Below are positions 50,449 through 58,807 of a stretch of DNA of 64,000 nt, in pieces; within the stretch, counting starts at the first letter, position 1, and every line of letters begins with the position of its first letter. The DNA lies in contig JBEWZL010000012.1 of assembly GCA_045837725.1 (NCBI GenBank), forward strand, positions 62,001-126,000, in the 5' to 3' direction. The translations under genes were made by a program, and so were the position numbers. The DNA is from Vermamoeba vermiformis. Lineage: Eukaryota. A model generated the notes under the pieces. That model made no database searches, had not been told where the DNA came from, and was given only the letters and a program-made list of their open reading frames with translations.

Positions 50449-52892
50449 TTACATCTTAGACAACAAGAACTCGATGGCCTGTTCAAGTGAGCCGTAGTTC
50501 GTGGCCCAAAGAGCTTCATTGGCCTGTTGTTCTGAATAGCCCATCAACAACAACTGTTCGCGCATCTCTTGCTCGCGAGGGTTCTTAGGTCCTGCAGCTG
50601 CGTTGTTGTTGTTCGGGGCAGTATTCGCGGCAGCGTTCGTGTTCGCAGTGCTCGTGCTGCCACTGCTGCCGAGCTGCTTGTTGATCCACTGCTCGATGGC
50701 TGGTCGCACGTCGCGGTCAAACAACTTGCCACGCTCTTTGATGCCGTAAATGACCTTCTCATACACGTCTTGAGGCAAGTTGAAGAGAATGTAGAGCAAC
50801 AAGTGGAAGTCGGTGAGTGAATCGAAGAATGCAGTGCCGTGCTGGCCTTCGAGTTGTTTCTGCAAGTCACGTGCTGATTGCGGACGGTGCGCTCTGTTCT
50901 CGATGGGGAAACTGAACTTCTGGAAGCGAGGACGAGGATCTTTGGGGAAACTGTGGCGCACGCTAATGACGAAGAAATCAGTCGGGAAGTTGGGCTCGGC
51001 TTTGGTCTGCACGTTGAATCCATATTCATTCTTGCGGCGGTAGTAAATGTCGGGGAATAACGTTTGCTCGGTGGATTTTCTGACGCGGAAGAATTCAGGG
51101 TCCTTTGAGGCCTTGATGACTCCATCGCGCACGAGACCAGCGCATTGATTGCTGACTTGATAGGCTGCAACGTCAATGTGACCTTCTTTGTTGCCGTGAA
51201 CTAACACTGACACAAACTTCGAGCCAAAATAGCCAGTTGTGGATTTCTTGAAGGGCGATGGGTAGCGGTTCTGCAATTGAGCCATGCGCATCATTTCAAT
51301 CGACTTGAGCACGTAGACGTTCTCGTCGCGATCAGGAACAATTTGTTTCTTCTCGTCAACTTTCAATGAACTCCAAATGAAACCAATCTGATCAACGTTA
51401 GTATATACTAGTATTCTATAAGATTGGTTTGGTACGTACTCTTTGCATGCCAAGGCTCTTAGCGAATTCATTGACCTTCTCTTCATTGGGGTCTTTCAAC
51501 AAAGCAACAGATTCACGATTGCTCTTTTGAGGTGGCTCGTAAATAGCTGCAACGAGTGCTCTGATGCCGAGAGGAATGGTCGGATCTGGCACATACGAAC
51601 CGTACAAATATCCACAGCGTTGATTGCCAGTCTCTCGCCAGTACTGAGAAGGCAGTCAGTAACAAAAATAAACTCCCAATTAACGATGTGGTGGTACATA
51701 CTTGAATGAACTGTTCGACCATGGAGCTGTGTTCAAACTCAATGTGATCCACGTGACGATAAGGCTGACTGTCCAATGACACTGTGCGGCTTTCTTTTGA
51801 AGTGTAAGCGATGCCTGAGCTGACGTCTATGCTGTACTTGGGCACATCGAGCGTGTATTGAGGATTGCTAAAGGCGACAAGTTAACGCTACTGTGCCTTT
51901 CGAGTATTTTATTAGCACTTACTTGTAATGTTTGTGCTTGAAGAAGGAGTGGAATGGCAAGAACTTGATGCCTTGCGACTTCCACGGCTCTTTGTTCAAA
52001 ATGTCCCACGGCTGCACGGTTAGTTAGTACATATCGTTAGTCTATAAAGGCTACACATACAGCAATAGGCATACAGTTGATACACGAGCCCTTGTCACCG
52101 TGATTGCAGCTAATGATAGGATTAGAATTGAATCAAACAAACATGTGAACTACGTACTGAGGGCCTTTCTTCTGCGGGGTCCAGCCATCAGTCTTGGCCA
52201 GCTCTTGGTCAATCTGATCCTCAACGACAGCTTTAGGCGCTACTTCGGGTATTTTAGGCTTGGGCGCCTCTTTGACGGGCACGACTTTGTTGCCGTTGAC
52301 TGATTGCGCGTGCGTCACTTTCTCTTTTTCTTCTTCCATTGGTGCTGGTGCGCTAGGTGCGTCTTGAATAGCAGCTGATACTACGTGCACCATATCACCG
52401 TTCATTACATTGAGACTCTTCAAAGTGCTTGCATCATTGGAAAGATCTGTGACTTTTGGTCCTAAGCGGATCGAGAGCTTCATATCATTTGTGGGTACGG
52501 ACAAGAGTTGACTGATCTGAATTATAATGGTACAAATTAATTAGAGGCTTGTAGTAATTTACTAAACATTATTGGAAATTATCAAAATTGTTGTCACCAC
52601 CTGAAAAATTTTTCAAATAATTATGGTTGTAGTTTAATTATCATATATGTGATATATAGTGATTATATCAATTATTTTGAAGCATACCTTCGATTTTAAT
52701 TGAGCAATAGTCGAATTTTCATCGATCTCTAGTCTTTGTACTCCTTGTCTTGAACTAACTCTAATTATCTGCGCCACATAATAAATAAAATTAATACGTA
52801 AATTATTTATTCGCTATTATTCAATAAAGTTAAATTTCTGCAAGCTGAAGAGAAATCTGAACTTCGCTTTGAGTATTAACGCTGCTTACCAT
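50449..52892 (-). CDS. NPL4: NPL4 (Cdc48/p97 cofactor) with C-terminal UBA domain
   Basis: MIIRVSSRQG UBL; EDQIDQELAKTDGW; CNHGDKGSCINC; YRHVDHIEF; VAAIYEPPQ; GSKFVSV; FPIENR; DFHLLLY; terminal LLLMGYSEQQANEALWATNYGSLEQAIEFL. Confidence 0.93.
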
Positions 52893-53368
52893 TATGATCG
52901 ATTAAATATATACAAATGAGCGAGTCAAGTGGTCTCCTTATAAAAAGTAAATTTTAAAATTCCATTCTTCGAGTGTCGGTCATTGGAGCAAAAAAACCAA
53001 ACACGTGACCACTTCTTAGTGACGTATGCAAAGTGATTGGACCCCATTGAGCATTGACATTCTATAAAGCAGTGGGAAACAAGTTTCCTCATAACAAAAC
53101 AGCGTAAGGCTTCCCACTTTGTGGATCGAATCTAGAATCTTCGATCTCGCCCGTCGAACGCTTCACCCCAGATTCAACATTATGCACTTACATTGACCTG
53201 ACCTTAAGCATTCGGGAACATTTCGGCGGATCCCAACGCCCGCTCGCTGGCCGGGCCAAAAATAGATAAAAAATCTGCGGCGTGCTACCATTTTTATTTT
53301 TGTTTAAGCTGGCGACCACACTACCCAAGTTCTTATTATACATTTGCCTAGTATATATCCTTATCGTC

Positions 53369-56088
53369 ATGACCGCCAGACAGTTGCAAGAAGAGAATCG
53401 CACCTTGTTGCGTGAAAACAACGAGCTGCGTGCTGAACTTCGTGATATCAAGGGCTATGTCGACTTGTTGGAGGTATAATTAATTACTACGGTCTATATA
53501 CTTCCTTTTCGCCTTTTCTCCGGCTCGCGTGCTTTGCAACGGAGCGGATTAAAGCTTCTAAGACGGGTTCCACCACCGCGCCGTCTTTCAAATTTCAGAC
53601 CCTCGTTTGATAGTGAAAATAGTTACCAATTAATTATATTTACTGATTTTAATGACAAATTAGAGCACCTTGAACGAAGAAGGTCACGAATCTAGAGTGA
53701 AAATCATGGACGAAAAGAAGGACTCTGAAACTGCTCCAGTTGACCCCGAGAAGGCTTTAACTATCGTAGTTTTTGGTGCTTCTGGTAAGTATCAAGTCTA
53801 ATACCATATCAGGCGAATTTATTACTAAAAGTTTTGCTACTATTTCAAATCTGTAATTACAATTGCAAATTAATATTTATTGGGTTCTTACGACACTTAA
53901 TAACACGGATTAGCTCCATCTATATTTATAAATGCTATTTTCGGTAGCAGTATTGAATTCGAGCTCGATTATTCTCGAATTTACTTTGCTTCTAGAACAT
54001 GCCGCTATTTGCGTAATATCTTCTAATCAATTGTGTTAGGTGATTTGGCTAAGAAGAAAACTTTCCCTGCTCTCTTTGCATTGTTCAAGCGCGACCTTTT
54101 GCCCAAAGACGTTTTGATCTGGGGATACGCTCGATCGAAGTTGTCGAACGAAGATTTCATTTCTAAATGCGTCAATGCCACGTAAGTGTTTAATCATATA
54201 TTGCAACGATCAAGCTCCGGATAAATATTTGTTTCAATTGCTCAATCTCGCGTCTGCAGGATCAAGAACGGCGGTGACAAGCTCGCTGAATTCAATAAGC
54301 GCTGCCACTACTTCTCTGGTCAATACGACTCAGCTGATGCATTCAAAGATTTCAACAAACACTTGCTCGAAGCTGAGAAGTTCAAATCTAAGGGTGCCAA
54401 CAGAGTTTTCTATATGGCTTTGCCTCCTAGCGTCTTTGTCGAGACCGCTGCTGAAATTAAAGCTCAATGCAAGACTACGAGTGGTTGGAACCGCGTCATT
54501 GTCGAGAAACCTTTCGGCAAGGACACTGAAAGCAGCGCTCAATTGAACAAAGCTCTTGGTGCCCTGTTCAACGAAGGTACGTAGTAATTTAATTATATCC
54601 ATAATTATCCTTAATATTTTCATAATATGCGCGTACTTACTTATGGCCAATATTCATTAAATTGACAGAAAAGCAAAAATTTTCAAAAATAATTCTGCTC
54701 GCTATTATATTAACTTGGAACGCATCGTACTGATTATAATATTATTAATATAGATGAGATCTTCCGTATCGATCACTACTTGGGCAAAGAAATGGTGCAG
54801 AACTTGATGGTGCTCCGCTTTGCCAACACGGTCTTCGAGCCCCTTTGGAACCACCAACACATCGCCAATGTGCGCATTACTTTCAAAGAGCCCTTCGGCA
54901 CTGAGGGTCGTGGCGGCTACTTCGACGAGTTCGGTATTATTCGCGATGTGATGCAGAACCACTTGATCCAAATCATGTCCCTCGTGGCCATGGAGCCGCC
55001 AGTCTCGCTGTTGGCTGAAGACATTCGCGACGAGAAGGTCAAAGTGTTGCGCGCAGTGCCGCCCTTGGACTTGAAGAACATCGTCGTCGGTCAATACACG
55101 CGTGAGGGCAACAACCCTGGCTACCTCGAGGACGAAGGTGTGCCGCCCAACAGCACGTGCCCGACCTTCGCGACTGCTGTGCTGACGGTCAACAACCAGC
55201 GCTGGTGTGGCGTGCCGTTCATTCTCAAGTGCGGCAAGGCTCTCAATGAACGCAAGGCTGAGATCCGCATTCAATTCAAGAACAACAGCAACTTCTTGTT
55301 CCCTGGTACGTAGTAGTCTATTATATATATCACACCATCGCGCGTATTATGCGCATCAAATTGGTCTCCAACAGAAATTGAATTCATTGTTTTTTCAAAT
55401 CCATTTTTATTGCCATGCTCACACTGCGCATTGACGTGTGAGGGTTGCGATACGAATGGTCTATATATGTATGTATGTGTATCCCCTAGTATATATGTAT
55501 ATGTGTATCTGTTCTGTCTAGCCCCATATTGTCCATGTAGCCTGTGCCTCGAGCTGGTGATCGTTGTTCGCTGATACTTTGTTGTTCATCTTCAAGCCTC
55601 CTCAGGTGCTGCACCCAACGAGCTCGTCATGCGTCTGCAGCCCAACGAAGCGATTTACATGAAGATGATGATGAAGACGCCTGGTCTCTCCTCCGAACTC
55701 GTGCAGAGCGAGTTGGATCTGTCCTACTTCACTCGCTTCCAAAAGGAAGTTGAAGGTGGTCTGCCCGATGCCTACGAGCGCTTGATTCTCGATGTTGTGC
55801 GAGGTACGTGCTGTCCTCTGTTTGACACGTGTCACATTCATCCCCGCCATGTCACGTGATTCTAATCCCCCTTGCACAGGTGACCACAACTTGTTCGTGC
55901 GTGTCGATGAGTTGCAAGCTGCTTGGCGCATCTTCACACCCGTCTTGCATCAGTTGGAAGGCGAAAAGATTAAACCCAAAGAATACCCGTTTGGCTCCCG
56001 CGGACCCCCCGAGGCCGACGACTTGGCAGTCAGAAACGGCTTTGTGCGCAGCGAAGGATACAGCTGGCCTGGTAACAAGAAACAATAA
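53369..56088 (+). CDS. G6PD: Glucose-6-phosphate dehydrogenase
   Basis: [69 protein letters not shown]. Confidence 0.98.
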
Positions 56089-56606
56089 TTTATCTATTGT
56101 TCATTGTCACTGACACTCTCGCGCCCACTCACTTATTCTTATATTATATAATATACCTCTACCAATTGTTAATCGATCTGTCGTTATTATTTTTTCGTTT
56201 TATTAATAAATGACAAATTGATCAATGTGGATCCAGCTACAAAACAGAGAAACAAGCGGAGAATAGACTTTATTTGAATCGATAAATACTAGTCATTCTT
56301 GACCTTGTAGTCTCAATTAATACGAGAGTGAACATCTATGTATTCCCTATTAATAATACTGAAGAATAGACGCTGATTGCTATTCATTTCAAACAGCCAT
56401 CAAAAGTCGCCTGTAGTCGCCTCTTTGTCGGTAATAAACACTTGCGCGTTATTTTGTGTAAATTATTGTCTTTTTCGAAAGAATTAAGGTTGTCTTCCAA
56501 TTCTATTCTTTTCGTGTCTTTTCAATTCTTTCGCAACAAAACGCAAAAAAAAAAATCGTTATTGATTAATTCAAACAAGAACAACACAAACCAAACATAA
56601 AGCGTC

Positions 56607-57041
56607 ATGTCAGCAGCTAAAATCGTTAAAGAAATTGAAGCCCGGGCTGGAGCAAAATCAACTAGTAAGCAATTGCAAAAGTGCAACGCACTGTTGAATT
56701 CTTTGAAAGAATTACATTTGAAACTGACGAATTAATGTGCAGGTAAATGCGCCCAAGTAGTTCGCGAGGCTATTGAGGCAGCTACTGGCGTGGCACTTGT
56801 CCGCCAAGAGAGTGCCAAAGACTACGGCCGCAGTTTGATTAAAGCAGGTTTCAAAGTGGTCACAGATGCTCCCAAGGCCGGTGATGTCGCTATATACGGC
56901 GCGATTGATAAACATCCGGACGGTCACATGCAAGTCTACACAGGCTCCAAGTGGTTGTCTGACTTTGTTCAAACGGACCAATATCCCGGACCTAACTACA
57001 GAAATGCCAAGGCTAAATACACTTTGTATCGACTCGGATAA
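56607..57041 (+). CDS. NlpC/P60-CHAP-fold peptidoglycan amidase of Tae3 (type VI amidase effector) type; 118 aa, one intron
   Basis: Exon 56607-56664 plus exon 56743-57041 give MSAAKIVKEIEARAGAKSTSKCAQVVREAIEAATGVALVRQESAKDYGRSLIKAGF...KAGDVAIY...HPDGHMQVYTGSKWLSDFVQ..YPGPNYR..YTLYR; Cys22/His81 dyad. Confidence 0.8.
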
Positions 57042-57332
57042 ACGTCATTACACTAATGTATGCTATCAATATGTTTGCTTTGCTGTTTCAACAACCGCGT
57101 GAAATTGTTTGGTCAACCAATTTGTGCGAACTGAAACCATGCAATCTCATGTCGTTCTTCCATTCCAGGCGAGTTTTAATGATTACAGGGTACAGGGAAC
57201 GAGTTACCGCAAAACAGTTGATACAGTCTAGACTGCCAATCATGTCATTCGATTAGCGCAGTATTGACAGCTGCAAATATCGCATCTTGCAGACTCGTTG
57301 CGGCCTCCATATAAGCGTATTATAACTATGAT

Positions 57333-58807
57333 TTACTTGGCATCAGAAGCAGGTTTGGCCTGCTGCAAACTCCAACTGTACAAAACTACGCCACTGACAG
57401 CGATGGCACTCGAGACTAAATTGCCCATAGTGACGGGGTTCTGGAAGTACAATATACTCGAGTAAATGATGAACAGGCGCTTGAAGCTGTTGGACACGCC
57501 GTGACTGATGGGACTCATCTCGTTGAGTGCCAAGAACGAGAACACGTTGTAGAGGTAGTGCGATATTGAGGCCTCAAGTGGACCAGGTTAGCAATGTGAT
57601 TGTGACATTAGAACGACATACCTTAAACAATAGTGAGGCCGCGTCAGAAGTAGGTGTGAACGAGGCAATGAATGGCTCGTAGCCGTACTGATAGAGCTCA
57701 ATGGAGAGCAGTGGTATTGTGGCCACAGCGGAGAAGAATGAAATGTACCAGAACACGTTCTGATTGTCTAATTTGCTCTCTAACAACAGCTACGATAATA
57801 ATAACTATTAGTATCAATCATAAGAAAACTATTATAGTAGAAATTATAGAAGAAAGTGCTCGCTTTGCACGGAAAATTTTTCCGTCAAAATTTGTTGGAA
57901 TATTAAAAGGCTGTATATACCTTCTTTGAGAAAATAGTACGCGAAGAGAACACGAGGTTAGAGGCCATGGCAGTGGTGAAGGCGTAGAGACTGAAGTTGA
58001 ATTCAGTGCTGCACGAGAGACCAATGCCAAACACGATGATGAGCAGCGACACAATGGTGATGGTTTTCAATCGCTCTTTTAAGATAATCACTGCTAGGAC
58101 GGCTGAGGTCAATGGTTCAGCTGCCTATTCAATATGATCATATTAGGGCTCAATTCAAGTGGCGAAAGTAAGTCCCACGAACGGATCCAAATTGAGAAAA
58201 AATAATTTGAATTCAAACAGAGATACTAGTATTATCATAAATAAATTAATATGTACCTTGACAGTATGCATGAATGATGCAGATGCAGCTGAAGTGCTCA
58301 TGTTCGTCAATAAAGTGCCGATCTCGTGTACGGATGTGAGCACGGCGAGAAATTTGAATTCCTTAAGCGTAGATATAAACTGCCACTGCTTGAGCATATT
58401 GAGCGCTAAAAATCCAGCCACTGCACCCGTCAGACTTTGTGCAAACTGTATTGAAAAAATAAAATCATGTCAGAGCTGTTTTAGAAGCAGATCCACGATG
58501 GAAAAATTGCATCCAAGTAGTATAGTAAATTATTGTAAGATTACAGCAAGATTTTATCGTTGAAGAATTGGAGTAGATCCATCAAAATTAATTCGCAATT
58601 TCAAAAAGGTACCAATGAGTTTCATAAGCAATACACTAATTCAAAAATATTCGTATTAATATTTAGCGTACGTACAGTTAAAAATATTGGCATGGAGTAG
58701 ATGTCCAAGTAAGCTTTGTTATAAATGCCAGCAGTGACGCTGAATATCCACCAAGCAAATAATATGCCCGCTACTTTGACGGTCTTTTGTAATTTTCTAT
58801 TCGCCAT
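57333..58807 (-). CDS. Triose-phosphate/nucleotide-sugar transporter family protein (SLC35E-like)
   Basis: WWIFSVTAGIYNK, SFMHTVKAAEP, MASNLVFSSRTIFSKK, LNEMSPISHGVSNSFKR. Confidence 0.9.

Follow-up and report, generated by a model that had tools for sequence, protein, structure and literature searches.

The window, the whole 64-kb stretch of DNA analysed here, contains a short two-exon gene on its + strand, between a G6PD gene and a gene of the triose-phosphate-transporter (TPT) family. Exon 1 (56607..56664, +) starts with an ATG at 56607-56609, has an in-frame TAA two codons upstream (56598-56600), and contains 19 codons plus the first base of the Ser20 codon; its product is the N-terminal helix segment lying ahead of the catalytic cysteine in proteins of this family. 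A phase 1 intron of spliceosomal type follows (56665..56742, +; 78 nt, GC 0.35), beginning GTAAGC, carrying ACTGAC at 56723-56728 and ending CAG. Exon 2 (56743..57041, +) encodes the remainder of the Tae3-like amidase domain and ends with a TAA at 57039-57041; the homologues end where this TAA falls, and it is therefore the true stop. The codon of the putative catalytic Cys (56748..56750, +) lies 5 bases 3′ of the splice acceptor, and that of the putative catalytic His is at 56925..56927 (+). Splicing in silico gives a protein of 118 aa in which Cys22 is the sole cysteine and histidines occur at positions 77 and 81. Its motifs are KSTSKCAQVVREAIEA, which spans the junction, SAKDYGRSLIKAGF, GDVA, HPDGH, WLSDFVQ and YPGPNY. 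The 118-aa product, the GT-AG intron with its ACTGAC element, Cys22, His81 and the series of motifs had all been proposed in a first-pass annotation of this DNA, and every one of them is present.

In the exon-2 reading frame the first Met falls 3′ of the Cys, so that only the spliced reading yields a protein that both starts at an ATG and includes the Cys. The earlier remark that the catalytic Cys region becomes accessible only after intron removal is therefore correct. The intron has splice signals of the types, and a size in the range, seen in the six introns of the G6PD gene in the same window (76-300 nt, GTA[ACT]GT...[TC]AG, with CTGAT/CTAAT-like elements), which were defined by spliced alignment of a 100%-identical protein, P0161, to the window. 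When exon 1 was added to exon 2, the phmmer score rose in 139 of 157 homologues, by a median of 5.5 bits; for P0006 the gain was 21 bits and a single gap-free alignment over residues 4-116 was obtained. As a control, 2025 stop-free 58-nt segments of 52000-56600 were joined to exon 2 and scored by summed BLOSUM62 against 10 targets. None of these decoy joins matched the gain from the real exon 1 (199, against a decoy mean of 24.5, sd 26.8 and maximum of 153).

Two close homologues are represented by ORF-style protein calls: P0003 begins within the 3′ end of the intron, and P0004 begins four residues past the Cys. These start points would fit an interruption at the intron site in both copies. 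At the position of the in-frame TAA of the intron (56730-56744 region) P0003 reads Lys, and its ORF call starts MNKCAGKCA; its intron differs from that of the window at at least 2 bases over 6 nt, and exon 2 has only 1 change in 98 aa.

The gene might instead be a decaying or silent relic, that is, an inserted bacterial gene whose intron is kept or whose transcript is untranslated, yielding no active enzyme. The intron's length is divisible by 3 and a single TAA falls in frame within it (56733-56735), so that one could also take the region for an ORF interrupted by a single nonsense codon. Against such a reading, the open reading frames of both exons are intact, and the Cys-His dyad and every invariant residue of the family are retained. 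The intron has the splice signals of the host and a GC content below that of the exons, its sequence is without similarity to the family, and the homology of exon 1 to the family N-terminus runs precisely as far as the donor. A search of 5.8 billion proteins returned no transcript-derived 118-aa protein and only the ORF-style partial calls P0003 and P0004; the absence of the spliced form would suit a relic, but the existence elsewhere of a 99%-identical and a 69%-identical copy speaks against one. The first-pass view of the intron as spliceosomal is thus favoured by splice signals, by the homology join and by the decoy control; the splicing itself we infer from this homology and these signals rather than from junction reads.

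Sequencing reads and contigs were mapped over 55500-57300. Run X1 consists of Logan contigs with 100% identity to the window, from a library whose type is unrecorded. One X1 contig joins 55801 to 55878 (GT..AG), with the last G6PD intron spliced out; this intron is 55802-55877 by reads and 55804-55879 by spliced alignment, the cut being ambiguous by 2 bases. The intron and the intergenic bins have zero depth in X1. The removal of the G6PD intron, together with these empty bins, indicates that the X1 material is RNA-derived. X1 contigs with 0-1 mismatches cover 56799-57051, corresponding to exon 2 and 10 nt past the stop, at a word depth of 14-32 compared with 9 for G6PD. Nothing in X1 covers 56598-56798, and hence neither exon 1 nor the junction 56664/56743.

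Raw RNA-seq from three further runs (X21-X23) came from a related strain with the same species label, 95-99% identical to the window. These runs have zero reads on the amidase gene; as the 3′ end of G6PD is covered only about 5x in them, this is weak evidence. Low or conditional expression of the amidase gene could account for their silence, as could its absence from that strain. In runs X21 and X23 a poly(A) tail begins at about 56222, 3′ of G6PD. Over the 3′ region of G6PD (55950-56222), X21-X23 differ from the window by 13 fixed differences and a 1-nt deletion at 56203. A relic would be in keeping with the lack of RNA across the junction and over exon 1 in X1, and with the zero reads in the three runs of the related strain, but RNA-type contigs do contain exon 2, at a depth no lower than that of G6PD. 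Taking the RNA and the sequence evidence together, we regard a relic as very improbable.

The upstream neighbour is the G6PD gene (53369..56088, +), which has 7 exons and 6 introns in the spliced alignment of P0161; a gene with introns in this position identifies the contig as eukaryotic. Downstream lies a convergent, multi-exon TPT-family gene (57333..58469, -), recognised in two ORF pieces by Pfam PF03151 (E 9e-18 and 4.6e-18); its extent is given as that of the ORF pieces tested. The amidase gene is 519 nt past G6PD and 291 nt ahead of the TPT gene on the same contig, embedded between G6PD and a transporter as the first-pass annotation had described, and it is present in a single copy within the window. 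An extra 5′ exon of G6PD at 53369-53473 (region 53369-53786) encodes a charged, heptad-like N-terminal extension. The extension is present in P0161 and P0163 (547 aa) and absent from the transcriptome-derived P0162 (498 aa), which suggests alternative starts or isoforms.

No gene resembling the immunity gene tai3 was detected within the 64-kb window, the best match to two DUF3828 probes (from loci L014 and L031) having E 0.1. With G6PD and TPT as its neighbours, the amidase gene has no Tai3, type VI, PAAR or Rhs gene nearby, and the lack of such an effector context is what would be expected to set a dae gene apart from a tae gene. No Rfam family scored at or above its gathering threshold at any point of the 64 kb. 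The coding sequence of the amidase gene has a GC content of 0.485 and a GC3 of 0.44; the corresponding values are 0.474 (GC) for the window and 0.51 and 0.64 for G6PD, and the median GC of 60 bacterial homologue regions is 0.60. The composition of the gene is host-like and unlike that of its bacterial homologues.

These data bear on bacterial contamination or a chimeric assembly, either of which would account for a gene whose family is overwhelmingly bacterial. A single contig, however, links the gene to the 7-exon G6PD gene on one side and to the TPT gene on the other, and a spliceosomal-type intron interrupts the coding sequence ahead of the Cys codon. In addition, its GC content fits the window and not the bacterial homologues, no immunity gene adjoins it, the best bacterial locus is just 55% identical, and run X1 contains contigs for spliced G6PD as well as for exon 2, all 100% identical to the window. 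Contamination or chimerism is in effect refuted. The proposal of a horizontal transfer is supported by the intron-bearing eukaryotic neighbours, the host-like composition and the lack of an immunity partner.

The G6PD gene was also used to place the host. Matches with 98-100% identity to its product are transcriptome and metagenome proteins. The best named matches (70-74% identity) are from Balamuthia, Acanthamoeba, Physarum and dictyostelids, followed by glomeromycete and chytrid fungi. In a FastTree of the 82 of 120 listed matches that were 420-620 aa long, the window sequence fell on the side of all five named amoebozoans, with seven fungi across a fully supported branch. On the sequence of this one protein, the host would be placed, weakly, on the amoebozoan side.

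When exon 2 alone (98 aa, P0001) was compared with the PDB using phmmer, a single match was obtained at E<=10. This was 4hz9_A, Tae3 of Ralstonia pickettii (E 2.1e-24; query 1-96 on chain 22-117, approximately 50% identity). An AlphaFold2 model covering exon 2, computed from a 70-sequence alignment, had a pLDDT of 96.7 and a pTM of 0.88. Foldseek comparison of this model with the PDB, as suggested in the first-pass annotation, gave only three chains at E<=1e-3, all of them Tae3 (TM 0.92-0.95, E 6e-10 to 2e-8); the model superimposed on 4hzb_A and 4hz9_A with TM 0.94-0.95 and an rmsd of 0.9-1.0 Å. The remaining matches were CHAP endolysins, NlpC/P60 proteins of the MepS/Spr type and Gsp amidase, all with E>=1.3e-2, and no chain titled Tae1, Tae2 or Tae4 was among the best 50 Foldseek matches listed. 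Curated libraries (Pfam, NCBIfam) have no model for the Tae3-like family: Pfam gave only a sub-threshold CHAP match (E 0.0017; 19.2 bits against a cut-off of 26), and the NCBIfam search of the protein gave no match. Tae3 itself is said, in work of Russell et al. in 2012, to cleave the mDAP-D-Ala cross-link.

The chains 4HZ9 and 4HZB belong to the Tae3-Tai3 effector-immunity complex of Ralstonia pickettii, according to PMC6099711 and PMC4832377, and the catalytic dyad of Tae3 is given in PMC11796386 as C23/H81. In the phmmer alignment, Cys2 and His61 of the exon-2 query, which are Cys22 and His81 of the spliced protein, align with C23 and H81 of 4hz9. The query keeps 5 of 5 invariant and 14 of 14 near-invariant columns of the 70-sequence family alignment, His81 being among the invariant residues. 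The assignment to the Tae3 type, which the first-pass annotation had made from motifs, is supported in that the sole sequence match in the PDB and the sole strong fold matches are Tae3, with the Cys and His on the catalytic dyad. Sequence and predicted model alike identify the protein as a Cys-His amidase domain of the Tae3 fold, complete in the residues invariant in its family.

The protein has no evident signal peptide, as noted earlier. The maximum 9-residue hydropathy within its first 30 residues is 0.83, compared with 2.9-3.8 in eight relatives with leaders (P0008, P0010, P0012, P0041, P0055, P0072, P0083 and P0095); P0283 and P0317 also have visibly hydrophobic N-termini. No Met-bearing ORF of at least 30 aa that could provide an upstream leader exon was found on the + strand in 56370-56600. 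Two other short homologues labelled as eukaryotic, Rotaria P0285 and Chlamydomonas P0011, are likewise leaderless. One of the relatives with a signal peptide, P0055 (on an 88.9-kb JGI contig), has two copies of a Cys-rich module of approximately 45 aa before its Tae3-like domain, separated by Ala-Pro linkers. The modules have the pattern CNW..RAGTC.DYRSC....CPG...RCC and no Pfam match; they may be wall-binding modules added in a eukaryote.

The missing leader raises a further alternative, that the gene encodes a re-purposed, cytosolic amidase which has a host substrate, or processes imported muropeptides, and does not serve to kill bacteria. The other short leaderless homologues of Rotaria and Chlamydomonas would be in line with this, as would the fact that CHAP and NlpC/P60 folds include amidases with non-wall substrates, such as glutathionylspermidine amidase, which is a weak fold match of the model. 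On the other hand, about 50% identity and a TM of 0.95 to Tae3 across the domain leave little room for an altered substrate groove, and bacterial Tae3 is also leaderless, so that the missing leader may be the ancestral state. We consider such a change of function improbable.

An exhaustive protein search yielded 1238 representatives at E<=1e-3 and 252 at E<=1e-10. Among these relatives are effector-type fusions to PAAR (P0049) and RHS (P0102 and P0088). PAAR and RHS repeats are the usual carriers of polymorphic toxins. Sixty-five named bacterial loci, including those of Paraburkholderia, Pseudomonas, Massilia, Planctomycetota and Acidobacteriota, have at best 55% identity to the query. In two of them, L014 and L031, a DUF3828 gene (Pfam) lies immediately downstream of the homologue; DUF3828 we take to be the family of Tai3. 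With the DUF3828 proteins of these two loci as sole probes, a match was found in 32 of the 65 loci, and in 28 it was on the same strand and at most 600 nt downstream. Judged by their PAAR and RHS fusions and the downstream DUF3828 gene, the bacterial relatives are true effectors. A metagenome scan with single proteins gave no match to the contigs behind P0003, P0004 and P0006. An alignment-based metagenome scan found 8 loci with 41-55% identity, none of which is the contig of P0003, P0004 or P0006, and matches in the ESM Atlas were confined to bacterial clusters.

The closest relatives of the window protein are P0003 (104 aa; 99% identity, 1 change in 98 aa), P0004 (94 aa, 69%), P0284 (98 aa, 63%) and P0006 (136 aa, 62%). 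They are followed by P0283 of Willaertia magna (230 aa, 61%) and by P0007, P0009, P0282, P0008 and P0156 of Naegleria fowleri, N. gruberi and N. lovaniensis (172-296 aa, 54-57%). A second group of Naegleria paralogues consists of P0072 and P0281 from N. gruberi and P0041 from N. lovaniensis. Further homologues labelled as eukaryotic are P0011 of Chlamydomonas incerta, P0285 of the rotifer Rotaria sordida and P0317 of the ciliate Pseudocohnilembus persalinus. No named amoebozoan homologue was found in word-indexed, non-exhaustive searches; the exhaustive search is one without names.

In a quick tree of 215 rows (17 partial rows of 232 being left out), the window protein, P0003, P0004 and P0012/P0158 formed one set with an SH-aLRT support of 98, and all named bacterial loci fell in a separate group of 174 rows with a support of 93. 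The Chlamydomonas protein P0011 was inside this bacterial group, beside planctomycete-like rows, and this could reflect a transfer of its own or else the presence of bacterial DNA in that assembly. P0011 is 120 aa long and leaderless; together with P0054, L009-L013, L029 and L061, it stands apart from the window group and from the Naegleria groups. In a more careful tree of 89 chosen rows and 100 columns, the window protein paired with P0003 (100/74); P0012 and P0004 came next, weakly (58/94), and then P0006 and P0025. Bootstrap values along the backbone were 32-57%, and in an AU test a clade of the window group with four Naegleria proteins was not rejected (p 0.173). With 100-104 usable columns in these analyses and such backbone values, the tree can neither count transfers nor decide for or against an origin shared with Heterolobosea. 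The phylogeny proposed in the first-pass annotation thus sets the window group apart from the named bacterial loci, and its backbone is too weak for the number of transfers to be read from it.

Taken as a whole, the evidence makes it highly probable that this is a real, spliced, nuclear gene of a eukaryote, encoding a Tae3-type amidase of bacterial origin, and thus a gene of the dae3 type. This reading follows from the homology, the fold and the dyad, together with the eukaryotic context and the absence of an immunity gene. Removal of the intron would produce a 118-aa papain-like Cys-His amidase, collinear with Tae3 from end to end. By analogy with Tae3, the spliced enzyme would be expected to hydrolyse peptide bonds of bacterial peptidoglycan, and the protist might direct it at bacteria or at fragments of cell wall that it encounters. 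As a eukaryote has no peptidoglycan, it would need no immunity protein. Dae enzymes are unable to pass the Gram-negative outer membrane by themselves, so that a phagotroph with a leaderless enzyme would have three possible ways of bringing it to its substrate. It may act in the cytosol, on bacteria that have escaped or on imported wall fragments; it may be delivered to phagosomes by a non-classical pathway; or it could gain a leader from a candidate upstream exon, none being found in 56370-56600. We hold any particular site of action with less confidence than the reading of the gene itself.

A more specific history would be that tae3 arrived separately, in a transfer so far unreported, in an amoebozoan-like lineage, or was handed over from protist to protist in an event shared with Heterolobosea, and now encodes a leaderless, cytosolic protein. 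This we think unlikely, though deserving of some weight. Were it true, the enzyme could be a cell-autonomous weapon against bacteria escaping from phagosomes, or a processor of imported muropeptides, and as a cytosolic leaderless protein it would be unlike the Dae proteins described to date, which are secreted.

Eukaryotic dae genes, including dae3, are an established category, of which the gene in the window is a further member; it opens no new category. The movement of bacterial antibacterial weapons into eukaryotes is well known, but the list is still short, and an amoebozoan-looking host is added to it here. Possibly new are the host lineage, the leaderless and unchanged bacterial architecture, and an intron placed five bases ahead of the catalytic Cys codon. 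Domestication appears here in a very raw form: the protein still runs collinear with its bacterial counterpart, and the only gains are an intron and a host-like composition, not a leader. In our literature search no link was found between dae3 or amidase effectors and Naegleria, protists or Amoebozoa. Several lineages of protists and animals carry Tae3-like genes whose names give no hint of the family. Among the carriers are Naegleria (with two groups of paralogues, in three species), Willaertia, a ciliate, a rotifer and a green alga, and a survey of dae3 would therefore be worthwhile.

The closest known system is Tae3 of R. pickettii. The two proteins are of the same length class (118 aa in the window, 119 aa in R. 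pickettii) and are collinear from the N-terminal helix to the C-terminus; the dyad is C22/H81 in the window protein and C23/H81 in Tae3, and both are without a signal peptide. Bacterial Tae3 is a toxin exported by a type VI system and encoded beside its immunity gene Tai3, as described in PMC6099711. The window gene, in contrast, has an intron and eukaryotic neighbours, with neither Tai3 nor secretion-system genes nearby.

That genes for Tae-family amidases reside in eukaryotic genomes is an established concept in PMC4832377, which cites Chou et al. (2015, Nature 518:98), and in a preprint on Dae2 (bioRxiv 10.1101/2020.04.10.036376), in agreement with the first-pass statement that tae genes have been transferred to eukaryotes as dae genes. 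Like the dae genes, exemplified by Dae2 of Ixodes scapularis, the window gene is a Tae-family amidase gene resident in a eukaryotic genome, with a candidate intron and putative expression. Dae2, according to the preprint, carries a signal sequence at its N-terminus and is a member of a different Tae family; the window protein is without such a sequence. The preprint also states that Dae enzymes retain the ability to degrade peptidoglycan but cannot pass the Gram-negative outer membrane unaided. A different case is that of Trichomonas vaginalis, likewise a protist, whose papain-like NlpC/P60 peptidoglycan hydrolases were laterally acquired from bacteria (PMC6299479). They belong to a different NlpC/P60 subfamily, and NlpC/P60 structures match the model of the window protein only at Foldseek E>=1e-2.

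Among eukaryotes, the nearest named counterparts are in Heterolobosea (N. gruberi XP_002676554 and XP_002670238, N. fowleri, N. lovaniensis and Willaertia magna), with 54-61% identity and with the domain and its invariant residues in common. Chou et al., in 2015, are said to have described dae3, with Naegleria included, and dae genes reportedly gained secretion signals. The heterolobosean proteins are longer than the window protein (172-321 aa), some having leaders (P0008, P0072, P0041 and P0283) and others long low-complexity N-termini (P0009 and P0156), and the only names they bear were assigned automatically, for example 'predicted protein' or 'Peptidase C51 domain'. The host of the window gene, in contrast to these organisms, has intron-rich genes and a G6PD that groups, if weakly, with Amoebozoa.
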